From Bacteroidales bacterium (lineage in GTDB: Bacteria; Bacteroidota; Bacteroidia; Bacteroidales; UBA6680): DNA of 39,527 nucleotides. Numbering within the stretch: the first letter of the stretch is position 1; each line of letters starts with the position of its first letter. The stretch covers positions 1-39,527 of the forward strand of contig JAFGOQ010000094.1 of NCBI GenBank assembly GCA_016926405.1, written 5' to 3'. Below the pieces are notes generated by a model. The model did no database searches, was not told where the DNA came from, and saw only the letters and a program-made list of their open reading frames with translations. This document shows positions 4,450-14,908 of this stretch, piece after piece. The position numbers were made by a program, and so were the translations under genes.

Positions 4450-5979
4450 CTATTCCCACTCGATTGTTGCAGGTGGTTTAGAGCTTATGTCGTAAACTAC
4501 GCGGTTAATTCCTTTAACCTGATTAATTATTTTATTCGATATTTTTGCAAGAAACTCGTAAGGAAGATGAACCCAGTCGGCAGTCATTCCATCGGTACTA
4601 GCAACGGCTCTTAAAGCAACACAGTTTTCGTATGTTCTTTCGTCGCCCATAACACCAACCGATTGAACAGGAAGAAGAATTACTCCTGCTTGCCATACTG
4701 TGTCGTATAAATTATCTTCTTTAAGACCATTAATAAAGATAGAGTCGGCCTCCTGAAGAATTGTTATTTTCTCTTGAGTAATATCGCCCAAAATTCTAAT
4801 TGCTAAACCTGGTCCTGGGAAAGGATGGCGGCCTAGTAATGAGTCTTTAATACCTAAAGCGCGACCAACACGACGTACCTCGTCTTTAAAAAGAAGGTTT
4901 AAAGGTTCAACCACTTTAAGATTCATTTTAGCAGGTAATCCTCCAACATTGTGGTGCGATTTAATAGTTACCGATGGTCCGTTTACCGATACCGATTCAA
5001 TAATATCTGGATAAATTGTTCCTTGACCAAGCCACTTAACATCTTTTATTTTTTTAGCTTCAATATCGAAAACATCGATAAATGTTTTACCTATTGCTTT
5101 GCGCTTAAGTTCAGGATCAGAAAGACCTGCTAAAGCATCAAGGAAAAGTTTTTTAGCATCGACACCAATTACATTAAGACCCATATTTTCGTACGAATCT
5201 AATACTTGTTGAAATTCGTCTTTGCGTAAAAGGCCATTGTCTACAAAAATACAAGTAAGGTTTTTACCAATAGCTTTGTTAAGAAGAATGGCAGCAACTG
5301 TAGAGTCAACACCGCCCGAAAGACCAAGAACAACCTTATCGTTGCCTAATTTAGTTTTTAATTCGGCAATTGTAGTCTCTGCAAATGAGTCGGGAGTCCA
5401 GTTTTGCGAGCATTTACAAACGCCAACTAAAAAGTTCGATAAAATATCTTTACCCTCTAACGAGTGATAAACCTCTGGGTGAAACTGAAGAGCATATGTT
5501 TGTTCGCCTTCAATTCGGTATGCTGCAACTTTAACATCGGCTGTACTTGCAGTTATTGTATAGTTAGCAGGAAGTTTTGCAATAGTATCGCCATGCGACA
5601 TCCATACTTGCGAATGGCTAGATATACCTTTGAAAAGAGCATCTTCTTTGTCAACAAACTCAAGGTTGGCTCTACCATATTCTCTTTTGTTTGAAGGAAG
5701 AACCTCGCCACCAAAACAGTGGGCAAGATGCTGAGCTCCGTAACAAACTCCAAGCAATGGTAATTTTCCTTTAATATTATCAAGATTTGGAACTGGCGCA
5801 CCTTCTTCTCTAACAGATGATGGACTACCCGAAAGAATTACTCCTTTAATAGACTCATCGATAGTTATCTCTTTGTTAAAAGGGTGTATTTCGCAGTAAA
5901 CATTTAGTTCGCGAACGCGTCGGGCAATTAACTGTGTGTATTGAGACCCAAAATCAAGAATTATAATCTTTTCCAACAT
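4450..5979 (-). CDS. guaA: GMP synthase (glutamine-hydrolysing)
   Basis: [50 protein letters not shown]. Confidence 0.99.
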
Positions 5980-6007
5980 AGTTTGCTGTATTAGTTATTT
6001 TGGGATT

Positions 6008-6037
6008 CAAAATTAGGGAAATTATTTAACTTTTCAA
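6008..6037 (-). promoter_or_regulatory. Bacteroidota sigmaA promoter of guaA
   Basis: Minus strand TTG-N19-TAATTTTG, matching the -33/-7 consensus. Confidence 0.65.
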
Positions 6038-6216
6038 TAATTATGACAGAACAAAAACCAACTTTGTTTCTGTTGTATATGTCTCATGTAGTAAAGTTAG
6101 TAGGCTACTCTGTTTACAGTAAACATTGTGATTACCTCTTAATTTGTATCTATAGTGCCAGTAAGCACAACCAACTTCCATCTTCTAACTTTCAACTAAT
6201 TATTGTTTTTTACTTC

Positions 6217-6294
6217 TACTTCGTCGATTTCCGCTTTGCTCCAATTCAAATGCGGAGCATTCACGAACACCTTAATATAATATAGTGAGTGAGT
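6217..6294. repeat. Intra-repeat insert, copy 1
   Basis: Near-identical to 6371-6448 and at the same position inside the CRISPR repeat. Confidence 0.9.
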
Positions 6295-6370
6295 AATTTG
6301 TATCTTTAGTGCCAGTAAGCACAACATCCAACATTACGATTTTATGAAATGTAGTGTTGTGATTTGCTTT

Positions 6371-6448
6371 GACTTCGTCGATTTCCGCTTCGCTCCAATT
6401 CAAATGCGGAGCATTCACGAACACCTTAATATAATATGATGAGTGAGT
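6371..6448. repeat. Intra-repeat insert, copy 2
   Basis: 78 nt replacing the single C between GTTGTGATTTGCTTT and AATTTGTATC. Confidence 0.9.
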
Positions 6449-7557
6449 AATTTGTATCTTTGGTGCCAGTAAGCACAACTTTAGGTTCTACGGATACAGG
6501 CAGTATACAGTTGTGATTTGCTTTCAATTTGTATCTTTGGTGCCAGTAAGCACAACTATACATAAAGAATCTCGGTATACCAAGGTGTTGTGATTTGCTT
6601 TCAATTTGTATCTTTGGTGCCAGTAAGCACAACAATAGCCAACCTTTTAAATCAAGCCATTTAGTTGTGATTTGCTTTCAATTTGTATCTTTGGTGCCAG
6701 TAAGCACAACATACCGAGCTTTGTATCGCCCAACGTTATCGTTGTGATTTGCTTTCAATTTGTATCTTTGGTGCCAGTAAGCACAACACAGGAGGGGCAC
6801 TTTGATAACTCTAATTGGTTGTGATTTGCTTTCAATTTGTATCTTTGGTGCCAGTAAGCACAACAGCGTCACGTCCGTACTTATCGAGTAAAGTGTTGTG
6901 ATTTGCTTTCAATTTGTATCTTTGGTGCCAGTAAGCACAACTGTATAGTGATTTCGGTGATTACAACACTAGTTGTGATTTGCTTTCAATTTGTATCTTT
7001 GGTGCCAGTAAGCACAACTTTTATAAAATTTTGAACTCATGCATACTTGTTGTGATTTGCTTTCAATTTGTATCTTTGGTGCCAGTAAGCACAACAGCTT
7101 CGTTTTGTGATAAATTAGAGTTAACGTTGTGATTTGCTTTCAATTTGTATCTTTGGTGCCAGTAAGCACAACAAAGAAAATTCAAGTGCACTGGGTGCGG
7201 TGGTTGTGATTTGCTTTCAATTTGTATCTTTGGTGCCAGTAAGCACAACATCCCAAACTAGGACCAGTAACAGTGATTCGTTGTGATTTGCTTTCAATTT
7301 GTATCTTTGGTGCCAGTAAGCACAACGTTAACATTATCAAACAAAGTTCATAAAGTGTTGTGATTTGCTTTCAATTTGTATCTTTGGTGCCAGTAAGCAC
7401 AACCTACTGTTGCAACTAATCCAGTTCCAACAAGTTGTGATTTGCTTTCAATTTGTATCTTTGGTGCCAGTAAGCACAACTGGTATGATGTCGACGAAGG
7501 TGCTTATGTAGTTGTGATTTGCTTTCAATTTGTATCTTTGGTGCCAGTAAGCACAAC

Positions 7558-7673
7558 CTGCTGGCGCTAAAGATTTATTGTTCAGTGTAGTACGGGTGGG
7601 TTTACGATTGCTAAAACTATACACAAACTGCCGAATAGTACAAATAAGGAGAGTTTTTTTTTATCCTAATTAA
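7558..7673. promoter_or_regulatory. Probable acquisition-side leader of the array
   Basis: Non-coding stretch between cas2 and the perfect-repeat end; degenerate repeats are at the opposite end. Confidence 0.55.
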
Positions 7674-8012
7674 TTAAAATAGCTCTAATTGTTGTACCAT
7701 TTGTGGTTTATCTTTTGTTTTTTGTGCCTGAAAAAGTTCCATCGCACCAAATTGTTTGTCGGTTATTTTTATTATTCCTACATGACCATATTCGGGCAAC
7801 GACTGTTTTACACGTTTTATATGCACATCGCCATTATCGCGCGACAAACAGTGACGCAAATAAATTGAGAACTGAAACATACTAAAGCCATCGTTAAGTA
7901 GTTCTTTACGGAATTTTGATGCCACTTTACGTTGCTTTTTTGTTTCGGTTGGCAAGTCGAAAAATACCATTATCCACATAACTTTATAACTATTTAGTGC
8001 TTGTTGGCTCAT
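7674..8012 (-). CDS. cas2: CRISPR-associated Cas2 (112 aa; start reassigned to ATG 8012)
   Basis: [31 protein letters not shown], typical of type II Cas2; overlaps the cas1 end. Confidence 0.95.
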
Positions 8013-8901
8013 AAAATGTTGGATAAATAATTTTACGTCTTGTTCCCTGATAGCATTCAAATAACGAGTTTGTGGTTCGGCTAACAGCAACCATTAGTGG
8101 GCTTCTTTTTCCATCAATTTCAACATCGGTAGTAAGTAATTGTAGAATATCGCGTTTAATAGCTGGTGTTAAATTGTCGTCAATAATATTTTCGTTAAAT
8201 AGCTTATAAACTAATTGGTCGGCAAAAGGTCGGTATGGTTCCATTATATCGTCGGCAAGGCAATACATATTATATTTGTTTGAATGGAACAATCCAAACG
8301 TGGGGTGCATTCCCGAACTTACTAAAGCTCGTGCAACAATGGCTCTTATTATAGCATAAGCATAATTTAATAGCCTATTAGGATTACCTCCGTCGGGGTT
8401 GCGCAAAAAATCATCGTCAAACAACTCTTTCCAATAGTATGCCGCTGCTCGTCCTTCGGTGTTTTTCGGATCGCCTGGGTCTACATTATCTTTTAACCAA
8501 TTAATGCGCGATGCCTCTTTGTTTAGTTTTGTTAATAATGTAGCCTGATTGTTGAGCTTACACTCTACAGTTTGTTTCCAAAGTTGCTTTTTTAATGGTA
8601 ACGAAACTTCTATTTGTGTCCGTATGCGCTCGGTCATTACATGGTTTCCGTTAAATGGCAACATTAACGATGCTGGCAAATGGCTTTGGTTACAGCTTAC
8701 TATAGCTGTTAAATTGTCTTGTAACGACTGTATTAATTGGTGTGTAATTGTTATCTGGGGGTTGTCTAAAACAATAATACCAATATCTTCTACAGGTATT
8801 GTTGCCCGACCATCTTTTTGGTCGGGCTTATCAATAACTAACTGTTTGTTTTTAAAGCTTAAATAGGCTGGGTTACCAAAATATAAAGTTCGTTTTATCA
8901 T
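7990..8901 (-). CDS. cas1: CRISPR-associated Cas1 (type II)
   Basis: [47 protein letters not shown]. Confidence 0.98.
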
Positions 8902-8913
8902 AGTTGTTAATTT

Positions 8914-11900
8914 TTAATACTCACCTACATGTACTACTCTTCCAAGATGGTTTATTCTTACTTTAATGATATCTTTCAGAGAATCTGTATTTCTAATCCT
9001 TTTATAACTAATGTCTTTTAATTCTTTTTTATCTTCTACTGTAGTCTCTAAATGGAATCTAAATACATAATCTTTTGATGTTATTTTTTGTACCCTATAA
9101 AGATTTTTAGCAATTACCTGCATATTATCTGTCGACAAAAGATCATACTCTTTAGGGTCGAAACCATCGGAAGGAAACAGAAACATTTCGTTGCTTTTTA
9201 GTGTGAACATAAATTTCCAACCTAAATTACTATTGTGTTCTTTATCAATAATTGGTAAACCAGCGTTAACTCGCGATACAGCTTCGAAAAACGAAACCAC
9301 TTTCTCTTGTAGCTTACCTTTTTCGTCTTCGTAAATAGCTATATGGTGGTTGTTACCTGTACTAACAAAATCAACGGGTTGTGATTTTCCGTTACTATCT
9401 AATAGTAGTTCGCCACGGTTATTGCGCTTATCGTGCAGGGCAACAGTGTTTTTAACTCCCGATATTCGAACTCTTTTTAGCGAAACACCTTTCTCTTTGT
9501 TTATCCAAATTGGGTTTTTATCGAGATTAGAAAAAGCTAGTTTACTATTGCCGTTAAACTCTTTTAATCTGTTATAAAGTAGTTTCTGAATACCTAAGTC
9601 AATAACTTTCTCAATTTTAAGCTCGGGGCTTATCTCTTTTCTTATAGTATAGTCAACCTCGTATAACTTAACTTTTACCTTTTCGGGTAGAGTTAAAGTT
9701 TTATCGGCATCCAGATAAATAGGATTTTTTGCTAAGCTGTTTTTTGCAGTAAAAGCTTTCTTAGGGTCGCCACCAAACTCGTTTAATCGTTTTAGTAAAG
9801 CCTCTTTATAAATAGGCTTGGTTACATTATTAATATACTCAGCGGTAAATTGCAAGCCAATTTTCTCCTCTTTTACAACAGCTTGTTTCATGCTGCCGTA
9901 AATAGTCTCTTTGTGTAGCTGCCCTCTGGGTGTTAGCTGTACTTTTGTTAAAGACAACTTGTTGCCACCTTGCTTAGTTTTATTAATATTTTTTGTTACT
10001 ACCTTGTTTTTTGCTTTAAACGAAATTAATATCGACTCTAAATGAGTTTTTGCAGAACCTCTAAAATTATCGAAAGGTTTTTTAAACAGTAGTTTTCCCT
10101 TATCGTTTCTGTAAAGTTCTTTCTGCTCAATACCACTTGCATCGCTTGTTTTTATGCTTCTGGCATTTAAATTATTTAGGTATTGAATAAAGCTATGTTT
10201 GGTAAATGCTATAGTAAGCGCATCCATTGCGTGGTGGCGATGATCGTTACGTTTGCTCCAATCTTTAATTCGTTCTTTTGATTCTCCATTTTTGCCTTCA
10301 ATGGTTTCTATAAGACCTAACTCTTTATATTTTCCGAAATTAAGCTCTTTCATAGTATCAACAAGCCCCCAATCTTCGCGTAATCTGCTAGTAACACTTC
10401 CGGTTGTTGTATAAACCTTACGTATAACTTCGTTCAACATTTGAGTAGCCATTTTTGCTATGTACTGACTATTTCGCAAGTCTCTATCGATAAAGTCAGA
10501 CGGTATATCCTTTTCGGCCATTAATAGTTTCAGGTATTTTCCTTTCGATAAACCATCGGTTTTGGCTTTGTACAGTCGCTCAATTCTACCTTTGTACTCT
10601 TCAACAAACTCTTTATCATATTTTTCTGATATAAAATCGATAGCTGTTTTATCGCCTTTTTCAAGATTTATGTTGCGATATTCTAATGTTTTGTTCGAGA
10701 ACGAATCGTCGAATAGTTTAGCTTTTGGTATAATGTGTTCAATATCTATCTCTTTCGAAAATAACTTTTCGCGAGGAATATAAGTATTTGAATAGAGTGT
10801 TTTAAAGCCGTTGCTCTCTAGTTCGCAGTATAGCTTATATCTAATAATATCGTTGCGTGTTGGGTTCTTAATACCAAACTCTTTGCTTAGTAGATCTCTA
10901 ATTTTTTCGTGATTAATTTTAGCCTTGTTAATATTTAATGTGTCGTTTTCTCTCTCTTTAGCACTCTTTTTTAATTCGCGAGCCAACTCAACTCTAACTT
11001 CATCGGGCTTGCCTAAGTCTGGATCGTCTATAATGGCATTAACCACATTAACCATTTGATTTAGAATTTTCTCTACAACAGGGTTTCTTAAACTGTTCTT
11101 TTTTAGAATGTTTAATTTGTCGGATAAAATACGTGTCTCTATTTCCTCTTTTGTTAGGTACGAAGAGTGATTGTATTTTGCATAGTCGCAAGCTACATCG
11201 TATTGGTTTCCCTCTTTTAAGAAGGGTATAATTTTGCTAATTGCTCGTGCACTTAAGCTACCATAGTCCGATTGTAATCTGATATTTGATAATAAACGAG
11301 CATAATTCTCTTTAAAACCAAAATGCTTCTGCAGAGCTTTTATTACCTCTTTGTCGCTCTCAATAGAGTAGAGTATATGCCATAGTTGGTAGCTAGGCTG
11401 CTTGTCGAACTCGTTACCCGAAAGGTTTGTGTTAAAGTTTAGTATATCTGCGTTTATACCTATTTCTTTAAAAATAGTAGTAGTGGTTTCAATAATTTCT
11501 TCGACACTTATTTTTTCGAAATCTATATCGTACCCCTCTTGGTGTAGTATTGTTTTGTAAATATCGAAAAGAGCCTTGTTTGTATTATTTCCTTCTACCT
11601 CTTTATAATTTATAGACCACTCTTTGGGTTTTTTAAATAGCAATTCAAGAACTTGGGTATCTTTTAATTTGCCACGTATGTTTAATTCGGCAAAAAGTTG
11701 TTTTTTCTGTTCAATGTCTAGATTGTATTTGGTTTTAGTCGACTTCTGGGTTACCTCAATATTATTTATTACTTGCCACACTTTAAATTCTTGAAATAGT
11801 GGGCTCGACTTAGGAATAGCTTTGTGGTATTTCTCGAACTCGCAGTTTGAAATAAGATGCTTCTGCGATTTTAAAGGACGTTGGTAAAAAATTGTTATAT

Positions 11901-12975
11901 CGCGTATTTCGTGCTTAATATTGTTTGTTAATTCTGGATAATATTTTGCTTGCGTTTCCCATATTATTTCAAATTCGTCCATGTAATCTTGTCTGTAGAA
12001 TACCTGATTTTTGAAAGAGTAATTAGGGTTTTCGCTAAGCTTTGCGTGCATAAATTCGCCAACAGTTTGTTTGTTGAAGTATAGTTCTTTACTGCGGTCG
12101 CTAATTGCACCAAGATATCCGCTAGAGCTGTTTAAGTTGTTGTTTACCTCGGCTAATACATAGGCTAGTGAATCTAACGATAGTTTTTCGGTAATAGCTT
12201 TAGAGCGTAATTCAAATGTTTTTAGTTTTTTCTCGTCTCTGCTGCCTTTAATGTCGGCTGTATAAATATTGTGTTCTTTAAGTAAAATTTTTGATGTTGC
12301 CATTTTGCCTACATCCTGCAATTGGTTGTAAGTTTTGGTATTAAGTACTTCGGGGTAGTGGTTTGCATGGTTATTCCATATAGCATCGAATTCGTTTTTA
12401 AGATCGGAGCGATAGAAATCGGGAATAAATTTACCTCCATCTTTCAATAAATTAAAGACAAGTTGTCCGGGGGTACATTTTGTCTGGTACAGTTGTTTTG
12501 CAATTTCCATACCATCAATAAGAGTTCCCTCTTCTTCGTTTTTTGCCTTTCGGCTACTTTTATAGCCTCTTTTTTTATTAATAGACAATAGTACGCGGGC
12601 AAATTCATCTTTTTCAATTTTTTCTTTCGCGGCTTTAGCTCTTAAAAGCAAAGTGTTGTGTGTACTGTTTTCTCCTGTTTCTGTTAAAACAGTATTATCA
12701 TCAATAAACCCAATACTTTTAAGTGTATTAATAAGATTAGCTCGTCGTTGTTTAAAACGTTGTATTCCTCTACGTGCCCCTCGCTTTGAAGTTCTGTCGG
12801 CATTTACAGTTATTGATTTACCCTTTTCAAAATCTGTTTGTTCATCGGTAGAAAGAGGGTTAACTCTAACACCTAAGCGTACTATTTCCGATTTCTCGGA
12901 ACTGTTTTCTGCCTCTTTTACATAAGCCCATCCAATAGATGTGGTTCCTAAGTCGAGTCCTAAAATCTTTTTCAT
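8914..12975 (-). CDS. cas9: Type II-C Cas9 (1353 aa)
   Basis: RuvC-I LGLDLGTTSIGWA, Arg-rich bridge helix, RuvC-II VELARE, HNH DIEHIIP..DDSFSNK, RuvC-III HRHHAMDA; no csn2 or cas4 in the operon. Confidence 0.99.
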   Translation of the reverse strand: MKKILGLDLGTTSIGWAYVKEAENSSEKSEIVRLGVRVNPLSTDEQTDFEKGKSITVNADRTSKRGARRGIQRFKQRRANLINTLKSIGFIDDNTVLTETGENSTHNTLLLRAKAAKEKIEKDEFARVLLSINKKRGYKSSRKAKNEEEGTLIDGMEIAKQLYQTKCTPGQLVFNLLKDGGKFIPDFYRSDLKNEFDAIWNNHANHYPEVLNTKTYNQLQDVGKMATSKILLKEHNIYTADIKGSRDEKKLKTFELRSKAITEKLSLDSLAYVLAEVNNNLNSSSGYLGAISDRSKELYFNKQTVGEFMHAKLSENPNYSFKNQVFYRQDYMDEFEIIWETQAKYYPELTNNIKHEIRDITIFYQRPLKSQKHLISNCEFEKYHKAIPKSSPLFQEFKVWQVINNIEVTQKSTKTKYNLDIEQKKQLFAELNIRGKLKDTQVLELLFKKPKEWSINYKEVEGNNTNKALFDIYKTILHQEGYDIDFEKISVEEIIETTTTIFKEIGINADILNFNTNLSGNEFDKQPSYQLWHILYSIESDKEVIKALQKHFGFKENYARLLSNIRLQSDYGSLSARAISKIIPFLKEGNQYDVACDYAKYNHSSYLTKEEIETRILSDKLNILKKNSLRNPVVEKILNQMVNVVNAIIDDPDLGKPDEVRVELARELKKSAKERENDTLNINKAKINHEKIRDLLSKEFGIKNPTRNDIIRYKLYCELESNGFKTLYSNTYIPREKLFSKEIDIEHIIPKAKLFDDSFSNKTLEYRNINLEKGDKTAIDFISEKYDKEFVEEYKGRIERLYKAKTDGLSKGKYLKLLMAEKDIPSDFIDRDLRNSQYIAKMATQMLNEVIRKVYTTTGSVTSRLREDWGLVDTMKELNFGKYKELGLIETIEGKNGESKERIKDWSKRNDHRHHAMDALTIAFTKHSFIQYLNNLNARSIKTSDASGIEQKELYRNDKGKLLFKKPFDNFRGSAKTHLESILISFKAKNKVVTKNINKTKQGGNKLSLTKVQLTPRGQLHKETIYGSMKQAVVKEEKIGLQFTAEYINNVTKPIYKEALLKRLNEFGGDPKKAFTAKNSLAKNPIYLDADKTLTLPEKVKVKLYEVDYTIRKEISPELKIEKVIDLGIQKLLYNRLKEFNGNSKLAFSNLDKNPIWINKEKGVSLKRVRISGVKNTVALHDKRNNRGELLLDSNGKSQPVDFVSTGNNHHIAIYEDEKGKLQEKVVSFFEAVSRVNAGLPIIDKEHNSNLGWKFMFTLKSNEMFLFPSDGFDPKEYDLLSTDNMQVIAKNLYRVQKITSKDYVFRFHLETTVEDKKELKDISYKRIRNTDSLKDIIKVRINHLGRVVHVGEY

Positions 12976-12983
12976 ATATATGT

Positions 12984-13013
12984 TTTGTATTTAATAATTA
13001 TCGTCTATATTTG
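12984..13013 (+). promoter_or_regulatory. tracrRNA promoter
   Basis: TTTG-N18-TATATTTG directly before the anti-repeat. Confidence 0.7.
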
Positions 13014-13017
13014 TCGT

Positions 13018-13101
13018 ACAAATTGAAAGTAATCACAATAAGGATTATTCCGTTGTGAAAACATTTAAAGCGGCTTTTCTTCTGGAGTGTCGCTTTTTTT
13101 T
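13018..13101 (+). ncRNA. tracrRNA
   Basis: ACAAATTGAAAGTAATCACAAT is complementary to the repeat 5' half. It is followed by AAGGATTATTCC (nexus-like), a TGT-GAAA-ACA hairpin, and an AAAGCGGC...GTCGCTTT terminator with U-run. Confidence 0.9.
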
Positions 13102-13300
13102 GCTTAAATGTTTCATGTACACCAAAATTTTATAGTAGGTGAATATACATTAAAGCGGTTAGGTTGTTTTCTGTAGCCCTTTTTTATGACCGTTAAATAT
13201 AGCCATTATTGATTTATTGTAGGTTTGTTTGTAGAGTGTTTTTTGTTGTAAAATAGTAGTTGTTTTTATACTGTTTTTATTTGCTGCTGTAGGGTTGAAA

Positions 13301-13670
13301 AAAACGTAACGTGGTTTCACCCAAAACCTAACATGGTCTTACCCAAAACCTAACGTGGTCTTACCCAAAACCTAACGTGGTTTTACCCAAAACGTAACGT
13401 GGTTTCACCTAAAACCTAACGTGGTTTTACCCAAAACCTAACGTGGTTTTACCCAAAACCTAACGTGGTTTCACCTAAAACCTAACGTGGTTTCACCCAA
13501 AACGTAACGTGGTTTTACCCAAAACCTAACGTGGTTTCACCTAAAACGTAACGTGGTTTTACCCAAAACCTAACGTGGTTTCACCCAAAACCTAACGTGG
13601 TTTCACCCAAAACCTAACGTGGTTTTACTCAAAACCTAACGTGGTTTCACCCAAAACCTAACGTGGTTTT
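13301..13670. repeat. 22-bp tandem repeat array, 16 full + 1 partial units
   Basis: Consensus AAAAC(C/G)TAACGTGGTTT(T/C)ACC(C/T); units start exactly every 22 bp from 13301 to 13653. Confidence 0.97.
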
Positions 13671-13724
13671 TTATCCTTAGTGTGGTGTGTGATTCTCGAG
13701 AAGGGTATTACTATTGTATGAAGC

Positions 13725-13755
13725 AAAAAAAAAGGTCTTTAAAAAAGACCTTTTT
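13725..13755 (-). terminator. Terminator of HU-like gene
   Basis: AAAAAGGTCTTT/AAAGACCTTTTT stem with an A9 run. Confidence 0.75.
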
Positions 13756-13763
13756 CATAGTTT

Positions 13764-14147
13764 TTAGTTTTTCTGGTAGGTAAGATTATTAAGAATAAAT
13801 TTTAAATCTTTACCCGGAGTGAAGAGAGCTTTTGCACCTTTAATGCTGCGCGATGTAACCTTGTCGGCACTATCTTCGCCATTACTGCTAATGCTAACTC
13901 TTAGGCTACCTAATTTACCTAGGCGAACAATTTTGCCATCGGCCAACGAAGCTTGCATAAAGTCAACCAAACCGTATATTACCGCACTAATATCGGCACC
14001 GCTAACAGTACTAATTTTCTCTACTCCTTTAATTAAGTCTTCTAAACTTAACTCTCCAGATGTTACAGCGTTGGCGTAAAACTTTTTTTCGCCGCCACCA
14101 ACAACTCCCGGCTTACCTTTTTCAATAATATTATACTTTATAGACAT
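13764..14147 (-). CDS. Bacteroidota HU-like (histone-like, TIGR01201-type) DNA-binding protein
   Basis: KKFYA...TVSGADISAVI..L...LADGKIVRLGKLGSLRVSISS.G...IKGAKALFTPG pattern. Confidence 0.88.
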   Translation of the reverse strand: MSIKYNIIEKGKPGVVGGGEKKFYANAVTSGELSLEDLIKGVEKISTVSGADISAVIYGLVDFMQASLADGKIVRLGKLGSLRVSISSNGEDSADKVTSRSIKGAKALFTPGKDLKFILNNLTYQKN

Positions 14148-14576
14148 CTATAAAAATTTAGGTTAATAAAATGCCCTAATGGGCGTTAACTACAATTTTG
14201 TGTATTTATGATATTCTTAATGTAAATTTAAAATCTGTTGAACTAACACTATTTGTCGAAAACAAATCTTTTATATCACTGTGTGTTTTAAATTTACGTC
14301 TGTTAAAGTAATAATTATTTTTTAAAACTCTATACGACGGTTATGAAAAAAATAAAAAAAATAACAAAATGCATTAATTTTTTTCTGAAACCATTGTATT
14401 TACTGATGTTTTAGTAATCAGTGTGTTTTAATCTTTTTAAGAAAAATTTATCTTGATATAGTTTTTTTGTCTTCATCTGATTTGGTGAAGACCTTTTTGG
14501 AATAAAAACAAATGCCTGCGAAGGGTTTTGTTTTTTGTAATATTGTTGGAGTGATTGTAATTAGTGAAGAAAATAG

Positions 14577-14650
14577 TCGGGATGACAGGATTTGAACCTG
14601 CGACCCCTGGTCCCCCAGACCAGTACGCTACCGGACTGCGCCACATCCCG
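14577..14650 (-). tRNA. tRNA-Pro(GGG), CCA not encoded
   Basis: Minus strand CGGGATG acceptor stem, CTGGT-CTGGGGG-ACCAG anticodon arm, GGTTCAAATCC T-loop. Confidence 0.95.
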
Positions 14651-14752
14651 AACTAGAGTGCAAATAGAGTAAATATTATTGAATATTTCAATATGTTTTT
14701 TGTTTTTTCTTTTGCTTAATTATTCTAATAGATCTTGAAGAGGAGAGTTTGT

Positions 14753-14808
14753 TAGTGAAATAGTGATATAGTGAAATAGTGAAATAGTGATATAGTGAAA
14801 TAGTGATA
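14753..14808. repeat. Octamer tandem repeat (TAGTGAWA)x7
   Basis: Seven consecutive TAGTGAAA/TAGTGATA units. Confidence 0.9.
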
Positions 14809-14908
14809 TGGTAGTACAGTAATATTGTGTTTTAGGCATTCACACTTACCAACTAGTAACTATATAACTATTAACTTTTTTATATTTGTCGCAAATTTAT
14901 TCGCAATT

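Follow-up and report, generated by a model that had tools for sequence, protein, structure and literature searches.

Two long CRISPR repeats at the old end of a Bacteroidales type II-C array, probably ordinary repeats colonised by two very small mobile elements

Repeats of two lengths within one CRISPR (clustered, regularly interspaced, short palindromic repeat) array have been described for the type VI-B (Cas13b) systems of Bacteroidota, in which, according to the portion of the Cas13b preprint that is drawn on here (10.1101/092577), the 5' and 3' parts of the long repeat are split by an intervening sequence, the long repeat lies distally in the array, and normal 30-nt spacers are kept. Another peculiarity has been reported for type II-C (Cas9) arrays by Feussner et al. 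2025 (PMC12080349, here and below cited from part of the paper): their oldest, first-transcribed repeat is an "extra" repeat without a spacer of its own, which carries mutations in 60% of arrays, chiefly within nt 1-15, and which can be changed without harm to spacer acquisition. We have analysed a stretch of 39,527 nt from a Bacteroidales bacterium (GenBank assembly GCA_016926405.1, contig JAFGOQ010000094.1, positions 1 to 39,527; "the window" below), in which two neighbouring repeats of a type II-C array are enlarged to 124 nt by inserted DNA. The window is one case of a phenomenon that recurs at the old end of such arrays.

How does this locus compare with the systems described? An earlier note, made from the sequence of the window, had likened its mixed long and short repeats to those of type VI-B, and the comparison is apt as far as the preprint's description goes. 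The effector that adjoins the array here is Cas9 with a trans-activating CRISPR RNA (tracrRNA), the window not having been searched with a Cas13b model, and the function of the long form, which has been shown for Cas13b, is putative here. A pattern with VI-B-like geometry (36-nt repeats and 30-nt spacers) matched 5 of the 401 genomes of a phylum sample, and three of these matches are arrays; no long repeat was seen in the arrays inspected, among them the two with repeats resembling those of VI-B, and the third has partly irregular spacing.

With the mutated extra repeats the locus shares a logic of place and orientation, in that the oldest repeat gathers changes that weaken its pairing with the tracrRNA. 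The changes in the part of PMC12080349 used here are substitutions, upstream terminators and guide-sequestering hairpins, whereas the change in the window is an insertion after base 15, and it is found in repeats 2 and 3, the extra repeat itself having substitutions only. In the main text of that paper the strings "inserted", "transpos", "indel" and "Bacteroid" do not occur, and the sole "insertion" belongs to a mutagenesis kit. Split II-C repeats were not described anywhere that our literature searches reached; Tn7-like transposons with CRISPR repeats as their target, reported from cyanobacteria (PMC11837452), are a different kind of element.

Anatomy of the two long repeats

The array (6125-7557, plus strand) was found by a script check to contain 17 repeats and 16 spacers, each of the 16 spacers being exactly 30 nt long. 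Fourteen of the 17 repeats match a 47-nt consensus exactly (6510-6556 onwards), and these identical repeats with their 30-nt spacers form the younger part of the array (6480-7557). The three others stand at the old end, all on the plus strand, as follows: the terminal repeat (6125-6171), which is the oldest, first-transcribed extra repeat, is 47 nt long, has no insert and is degenerate, with seven substitutions relative to the consensus (positions 1, 10, 11, 14, 16, 28 and 30), five of them within nt 1-16; it is followed by the oldest spacer, spacer 1 (6172-6201, 30 nt), by long repeat 1 (6202-6325), by spacer 2 (6326-6355, 30 nt) and by long repeat 2 (6356-6479). Both long repeats are exactly 124 nt in length and both are broken after base 15. 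These coordinates bear out what the earlier note had said of the two repeats, their breakpoint, the 30-bp spacers beside them and the outermost repeat without an insert, except that its insert size of about 78 nt must be corrected to 77 nt in each copy. The copies differ from one another at 10 of their 124 positions, six in the first 16 nt, three in the insert and one in the 3' part of the repeat.

The earlier note had treated the insert as a single structured unit, but it is made of two small elements, which we call A and B. In long repeat 2 the intact repeat nt 1-15 (6356-6370) are followed by element A (6371-6398; 28 nt, in reverse orientation), a duplicated TT (6399-6400), the repeat's own CAA (6401-6403), element B (6404-6448; 45 nt, in forward orientation), a duplicated AA (6449-6450) and the remainder of the repeat (6451-6479). 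Long repeat 1 has the same parts in the same order on the plus strand: nt 1-15, here degenerate (6202-6216), A (6217-6244), TT (6245-6246), CAA (6247-6249), B (6250-6294), AA (6295-6296) and the remainder of the repeat (6297-6325). A and B thus lie in the centre of the repeat, 3 nt apart, with a 2-nt duplication beside each (TT at A, AA at B). When A with its TT and B with its AA are taken out of long repeat 2, the 47-nt consensus is restored letter for letter; reading the insert as one 77-nt insertion demands an extra substitution. On its own strand each element follows TT(G/C)AA, within a repeat centre that is nearly palindromic (TTT-C-AA), and the two are similar in build, with a short G+C mini-hairpin and then a second small hairpin. 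A simple promoter and terminator scan found no plus-strand site within the inserts.

The pairings that the earlier note had seen in the insert (TTCGT/ACGAA, TCCGC/GCGGA and GCTCC/GGAGC) are present in minimum-energy folds, but the folds are not exceptional relative to shuffled sequences: the 80-nt insert folds as RNA with -15.8 kcal/mol (z = -1.26), a value that 21 of 200 shuffles equal or better, and its DNA fold has z = 0.08. In cofolds the anti-repeat of the candidate tracrRNA (below) pairs with repeat nt 1-26, and the 3' hairpin of that RNA also forms. The predicted duplex energies are -28.2 kcal/mol for the consensus, -22.3 for the terminal repeat, -17.9 for long repeat 2 and -13.3 for long repeat 1. 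Because these energies fall in the long repeats, the two oldest spacers are expected to be largely retired, their crRNAs (CRISPR RNAs) pairing poorly with the tracrRNA; the other 14 units would be untouched. A single contig from an RNA library carries element A alone with other flanks; it may be DNA carry-over and is uninformative on this array.

Related inserts in other arrays and genomes

The earlier note had proposed that Bacteroidota II-C arrays be searched for split repeats, and further cases were found both in genomes and in metagenomes. A metagenome scan for this II-C repeat type with any insert of 25-55 nt yielded 107 matches on 73 contigs, and 81 long repeats sit in arrays that also contain normal repeats. 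Insertion is exactly after base 15, with duplication of TT, in 68 of these 81, and the other 13 differ by downstream substitutions only. Twenty-four distinct sequences have been inserted, one of which is a repeat fragment and not an element, so that there are about 23 insert variants; they fall into few families (A-like, B-like in reverse orientation, a 24-25-nt element, and others).

The position of the long repeats, counted after the arrays had been oriented in the crRNA sense, is far from random. The leftmost, first-transcribed repeat is long in 28 of the 33 arrays that have at least five repeats, where 2.3 would be expected, and none of 20,000 permutations reached 28. Removal of two false "longs" leaves 27 of 31, and the figure for arrays whose left flank is 110 nt or longer is 19 of 23. 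In 10 of 10 long-repeat arrays that share their contig with cas1, this gene lies beyond the opposite end. A single long repeat often precedes 20-60 normal ones, some arrays have runs of up to seven long repeats, and in others long and normal repeats are interspersed. The centre of the long Bacteroidota II-C repeat appears from these data to be a hot spot: roughly two dozen tiny elements have landed there at the same base, and nearly all of them are now confined to the array's oldest, first-transcribed end. Such arrays would show, as a natural experiment, where a Cas9 repeat can be broken without cost, and software that looks for repeats of a fixed length will mis-call them.

A second insertion hot spot was seen in the 3' half of terminal long repeats, where elements of the same superfamily follow CTTTGAA (loci L179:4-67, L198:1455-1518, L202:1440-1503 and L220:76-136); certain terminal repeats thus have one insert at each of two sites.

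Are A and B also found apart from one another? An 87-nt insert query was compared with a sample of 401 genomes of the same order, and 37 of them (the window's own genome included) match it at E ≤ 0.01; every listed foreign match spans the first or the second half of the query alone and never both. Likewise, a 30-nt exact pattern across the A-B junction had no match in the genome collection. Without B, element A interrupts II-C repeats at the same base in genomes G027 (three copies), G286 and G117 and at locus L088, and at locus L148 a solitary II-C repeat is split by a longer relative (52 nt) that has the conserved 19-nt core of A. B alone splits a II-C repeat in G288 and occurs as well in the intergenic DNA of several genomes. 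In G070 a group II intron is present twice, each time with a B-type element in its domain V hairpin (L029:1500-1545 and L029:2551-2590), and these introns match the Rfam family Intron_gpII with a 40-nt insertion in the loop region. A is found alone, with differing flanks, on eight contigs of one public sediment run. The earlier note had listed a repeat-targeting mini-element among its possible origins, and the occurrence of A and B each alone, at this II-C site and at loci unrelated to CRISPR, supports it well.

The 19-nt core of A was found at no fewer than 119 loci of a species-level genome collection, about 17 being expected by chance on our own arithmetic, and three of the loci listed are CRISPR repeats. 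It often serves as the loop of hairpins whose stems vary, and does so in several phyla; some copies have a GTAG or CGTC tag; eight loci with the 19-mer gave nothing at the gathering score in an Rfam search. Hosts of this loop motif include Alphaproteobacteria, Streptomyces, cyanobacteria, candidate-phyla bacteria and archaea. Viral contigs seldom carry the cores of the elements (B on one contig, A on seven).

A Cas1 of II-C type is present in 139 of the 401 genomes of the order sample, and long repeats were seen in at least six of these 139 (G027, G286, G307, G288, G117 and the window's own genome), a lower bound, as the search patterns were strict. In G027 (L011:1277-1493) a 217-nt stretch that is not a spacer separates two long repeats at a rearranged old end of the array. 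In G117 (L154:1-533) a single normal repeat adjoins cas2 and, 434 nt on, an inverted long-repeat fragment lies at the end of the contig, an arrangement that is likewise a rearranged old end. The solitary long repeat of L148, on the reverse strand, has neither neighbouring repeats nor cas genes on its 8-kb locus.

Origin of the long repeats

The two 124-nt repeats are, we believe with some reserve, ordinary II-C repeats that were colonised by two tiny non-coding mobile elements and then copied once. A and B, as members of one superfamily, would have been inserted independently by whatever enzyme moves them, in opposite orientations and 3 nt apart, into the centre of one repeat, each after TT(G/C)AA on its own strand and each leaving a 2-nt duplication. 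The enlarged repeat would then have been copied once together with a new 30-nt spacer, most probably by the adaptation machinery while it adjoined the leader (gene conversion or ectopic integration are the alternatives), and the two copies would later have drifted apart. Copying of an enlarged repeat by Cas1-Cas2, which the earlier note had also suggested, would be the simplest route to two copies of one two-element composite around a normal 30-nt spacer. The inserts would persist at the oldest, first-transcribed end because damage there to the tracrRNA-pairing half costs little: in the extra repeat it should cost nothing, and in an internal repeat the guide upstream of the damage should be crippled. 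The old-end pattern can arise from tolerance alone, especially as deletions between repeats never remove a terminal insert. This explanation points to mobile DNA of a very small, widespread and uncharacterised class, and suggests that the unexplained long repeats in Cas13b arrays share an origin with these.

Among mobile DNAs the nearest in kind are REP (repetitive extragenic palindromic) sequences and their REPIN doublets, which, in the part of Di Nocera et al. 2013 used here (PMC3733652), are very small, non-coding, hairpin-forming repeats, single or in inverted doublets, scattered between genes and mobilised by RAYT (REP-associated tyrosine transposase) proteins. A and B differ from them in having no GTAG/CGTC tag followed by a 20-40-bp palindrome (A contains the letters CGTC with no palindrome after them, and neither element is built as tag plus palindrome), in being poor palindromes, and in not being multi-copy in their own genome. 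The two Y1_Tnp matches of that genome are on contigs other than this one and have different hairpins at their sides, with no cluster of A or B around a RAYT gene. MITEs (miniature inverted-repeat transposable elements) and hairpin-ended relatives of IS200/IS605 insertion sequences are like A and B in being short and non-coding, in their short flanking duplication (or fixed end), strand-specific target and hairpins near the ends, and the elements described here also occur at unrelated sites with presence/absence polymorphism; they differ from MITEs in the lack of terminal inverted repeats and of an identified parent element, and in their size of 24-52 nt, far below that usual for MITEs.

Several observations weigh against insertion by mobile elements followed by copying. 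No transposase, autonomous partner or parent element was identified, terminal inverted repeats are absent from A, from B and from the other insert classes, and the 2-nt duplication is indistinguishable from an element that simply ends in AA. The window's own genome, which is 92% complete, holds A and B only as the two copies in the array, so that the case for their mobility is wholly a comparative one. Structure is weakly supported by the folding z-scores given above, and a covariation test, which the earlier note had suggested, gave the B hairpin weak support: in an alignment set preselected for at least 5 of 6 pairs it pairs in 94.1% of cells, versus 93.0% after shuffling, and the changes on both sides amount to four cells, a number reached by 13 of 500 shuffles. 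The metagenome contigs derive in part from related strains, with about 13 insert classes among the arrays whose leftmost repeat is long. The long repeats of the window are repeats 2 and 3 and not the extra repeat, so the argument from tolerance fits less neatly here than in the metagenome arrays. To return from enlarged to normal repeats the array must have undergone a further event, be it loss of both elements, recombination or ectopic integration, and no evidence of one was seen. Finally, the sharp enrichment in terminal repeats could reflect positive selection rather than tolerance.

The last point leads to the strongest of the alternatives, which is possible and in our judgement rather doubtful, namely that the inserts are kept because they are useful. 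The hairpin would cap the array by splitting the repeat:anti-repeat duplex after base 15, and would suppress a useless "extraneous" crRNA or retire obsolete guides that compete for Cas9; this might be a fourth route beside the three published II-C ways of handling extraneous crRNA, and a REP-transposase-like protein might insert the caps. The very sharp terminal enrichment (28 of 33 against 2.3 expected, often with one long repeat before 20-60 normal ones), the predicted weakening of tracrRNA pairing, and the selection-like clustering of extra-repeat mutations in the part of PMC12080349 used here all agree with such a role. The same enrichment is expected, however, from purifying selection against internal insertions, and also from the inability of deletions to remove a terminal insert. 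Moreover, the window's own extra repeat is free of inserts, nucleotides 1-15, which according to that part of PMC12080349 contact Cas9, are intact in long repeat 2, and long repeats were found in only 6 of the 139 order-sample genomes with a II-C Cas1 (the lower bound above).

As to an inserting enzyme, an open reading frame (ORF) of about 200 amino acids that resembles RAYT proteins lies between cas9 and cas1 in 6 of the 14 related II-C loci in which both genes are visible, the loci not being independent (L152:7154-7783, minus strand; L190:4879-5538; L193:1558-2166; L222:11497-11979; L234:5134-5457; L186:8215-8388). It matches NCBIfam NF047646 with E about 1e-11, below the curated cut-off, and its match to Pfam Y1_Tnp is faint. 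Its presence next to the adaptation genes would suit the cap. These ORFs are flanked by perfect palindromes of their own, which do not resemble the array inserts, and this speaks against a link between RAYT and the inserts; the window locus, for its part, has no RAYT-like gene. In its widest form the idea would be that Bacteroidota II-C systems domesticated hairpin elements of 24-52 nt to cap their arrays at the transcription-proximal end, that these caps, inserted at a fixed site after repeat base 15, disable extraneous crRNA and retire the oldest guides, that the REP-transposase-like enzyme of about half of the loci examined may install or remove them, and that the long repeats of Cas13b arrays are the same phenomenon; we regard this, too, as rather doubtful.

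Less probable again is that the long repeats are a distinct working class of Cas9 guide, a possibility raised in the earlier note, in which the insert would, by analogy with Cas13b, stand out as a hairpin from the repeat:anti-repeat stem. Long-repeat crRNAs are processed and used by Cas13b at a similar efficiency, according to the part of its preprint cited above, and in the window's array repeat nt 1-15 are spared by the insertion and the spacers beside long repeats keep their exact 30-nt length. Nevertheless, about 23 unrelated insert variants from several families at one site indicate a shared target rather than a shared RNA function, and the same elements occur at sites unrelated to CRISPR. 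The weak evidence for structure and the predicted loss of tracrRNA pairing, which reaches -13.3 kcal/mol in long repeat 1 with its degenerate 5' part, also slightly disfavour such a class.

It is improbable to a still greater degree that A and B travel joined, as a head-to-head doublet of 77 nt like a REPIN, and entered two neighbouring repeats in separate events, the adaptation machinery having copied nothing. A and B do stand head to head and are able to pair (TCCGC with GCGGA), like the inverted REP doublets described in the cited part of PMC3733652, and the several metagenome arrays in which long and normal repeats are interspersed need insertion in place. Against this, the 5 nt between A and B (TT and CAA) are the repeat's own letters plus the duplication, as two separate insertions should leave them and as a pre-formed unit would have them by coincidence, and the halves were never joined in a listed foreign match among the 401 genomes, nor does the window's own genome have another copy. 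The least likely explanation is a chimeric join made by the assembler inside the repetitive array of a metagenome-assembled genome, since, even though that assembly is in 233 contigs and no public-run contig was found that spans long repeat 2, one such contig bridges the terminal repeat, spacer 1 and the insert junction, the 10 differences between the two copies are what divergence of real copies would leave, and the same architecture recurs on 73 further contigs and in several genomes, G286 with its terminal long repeat among them.

The feature itself is confirmed as real. Read support, which the earlier note had named as a test, is limited: that bridging contig is 170 nt long, spans 6080-6249 (terminal repeat, spacer 1 and the junction into the insert) and may derive from the source sample, and cover by public-run contigs is confined to 6080-6285 and 6361-6417.

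The surrounding type II-C locus

The genes beyond the young end of the array are, all on the minus strand, cas2 (7674-8009; Pfam CRISPR_Cas2, E = 1.8e-17), cas1 (7990-8901; Pfam Cas_Cas1, E = 4.2e-30) and cas9 (8914-12975; 1353 amino acids, Pfam RuvC_III E = 6.2e-56 and HNH_4 E = 2.7e-15). They abut one another (7674-12975), and no further ORF of at least 90 amino acids lies among them or ahead of the array, a search aimed at the csn2 and cas4 families not having been made. Since cas2, cas1 and cas9 lie on the minus strand beyond 7674, the leader should be on the 7557 side and the long repeats at the old end; the presumed leader, placed by position alone, is the interval between cas2 and the newest repeat (7558-7673, minus strand).

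A candidate tracrRNA was found upstream of cas9 (13017-13101, plus strand), with a 23-nt anti-repeat (13017-13039), then a hairpin and a run of eight T; the simple terminator scan missed this hairpin. As the anti-repeat is on the plus strand, the crRNAs are taken to be read on the plus strand, with the old end transcribed first and transcription running towards the cas genes. The locus is complete and has, as judged from its sequence, the features by which type II-C is recognised, with cas9, cas1 and cas2 only, a putative tracrRNA with an anti-repeat, and the oldest repeat first. Spacer 2 has no exact match in the viral contig collection, and an Rfam scan of 5900-14900 gave weak sub-threshold matches to CRISPR-DR49 and one tRNA, and nothing else.

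Nucleotides 1-11 of the terminal repeat (6125-6135) are perfectly complementary to part of the anti-repeat (13029-13039), with which the consensus repeat has mismatches at positions 1, 10 and 11. The oldest repeat may in this stretch keep an ancestral state that it has in common with the tracrRNA. Just past the candidate tracrRNA, upstream of cas9, a 22-nt tandem repeat is present in 16.8 copies with 91% matches (13301-13669).

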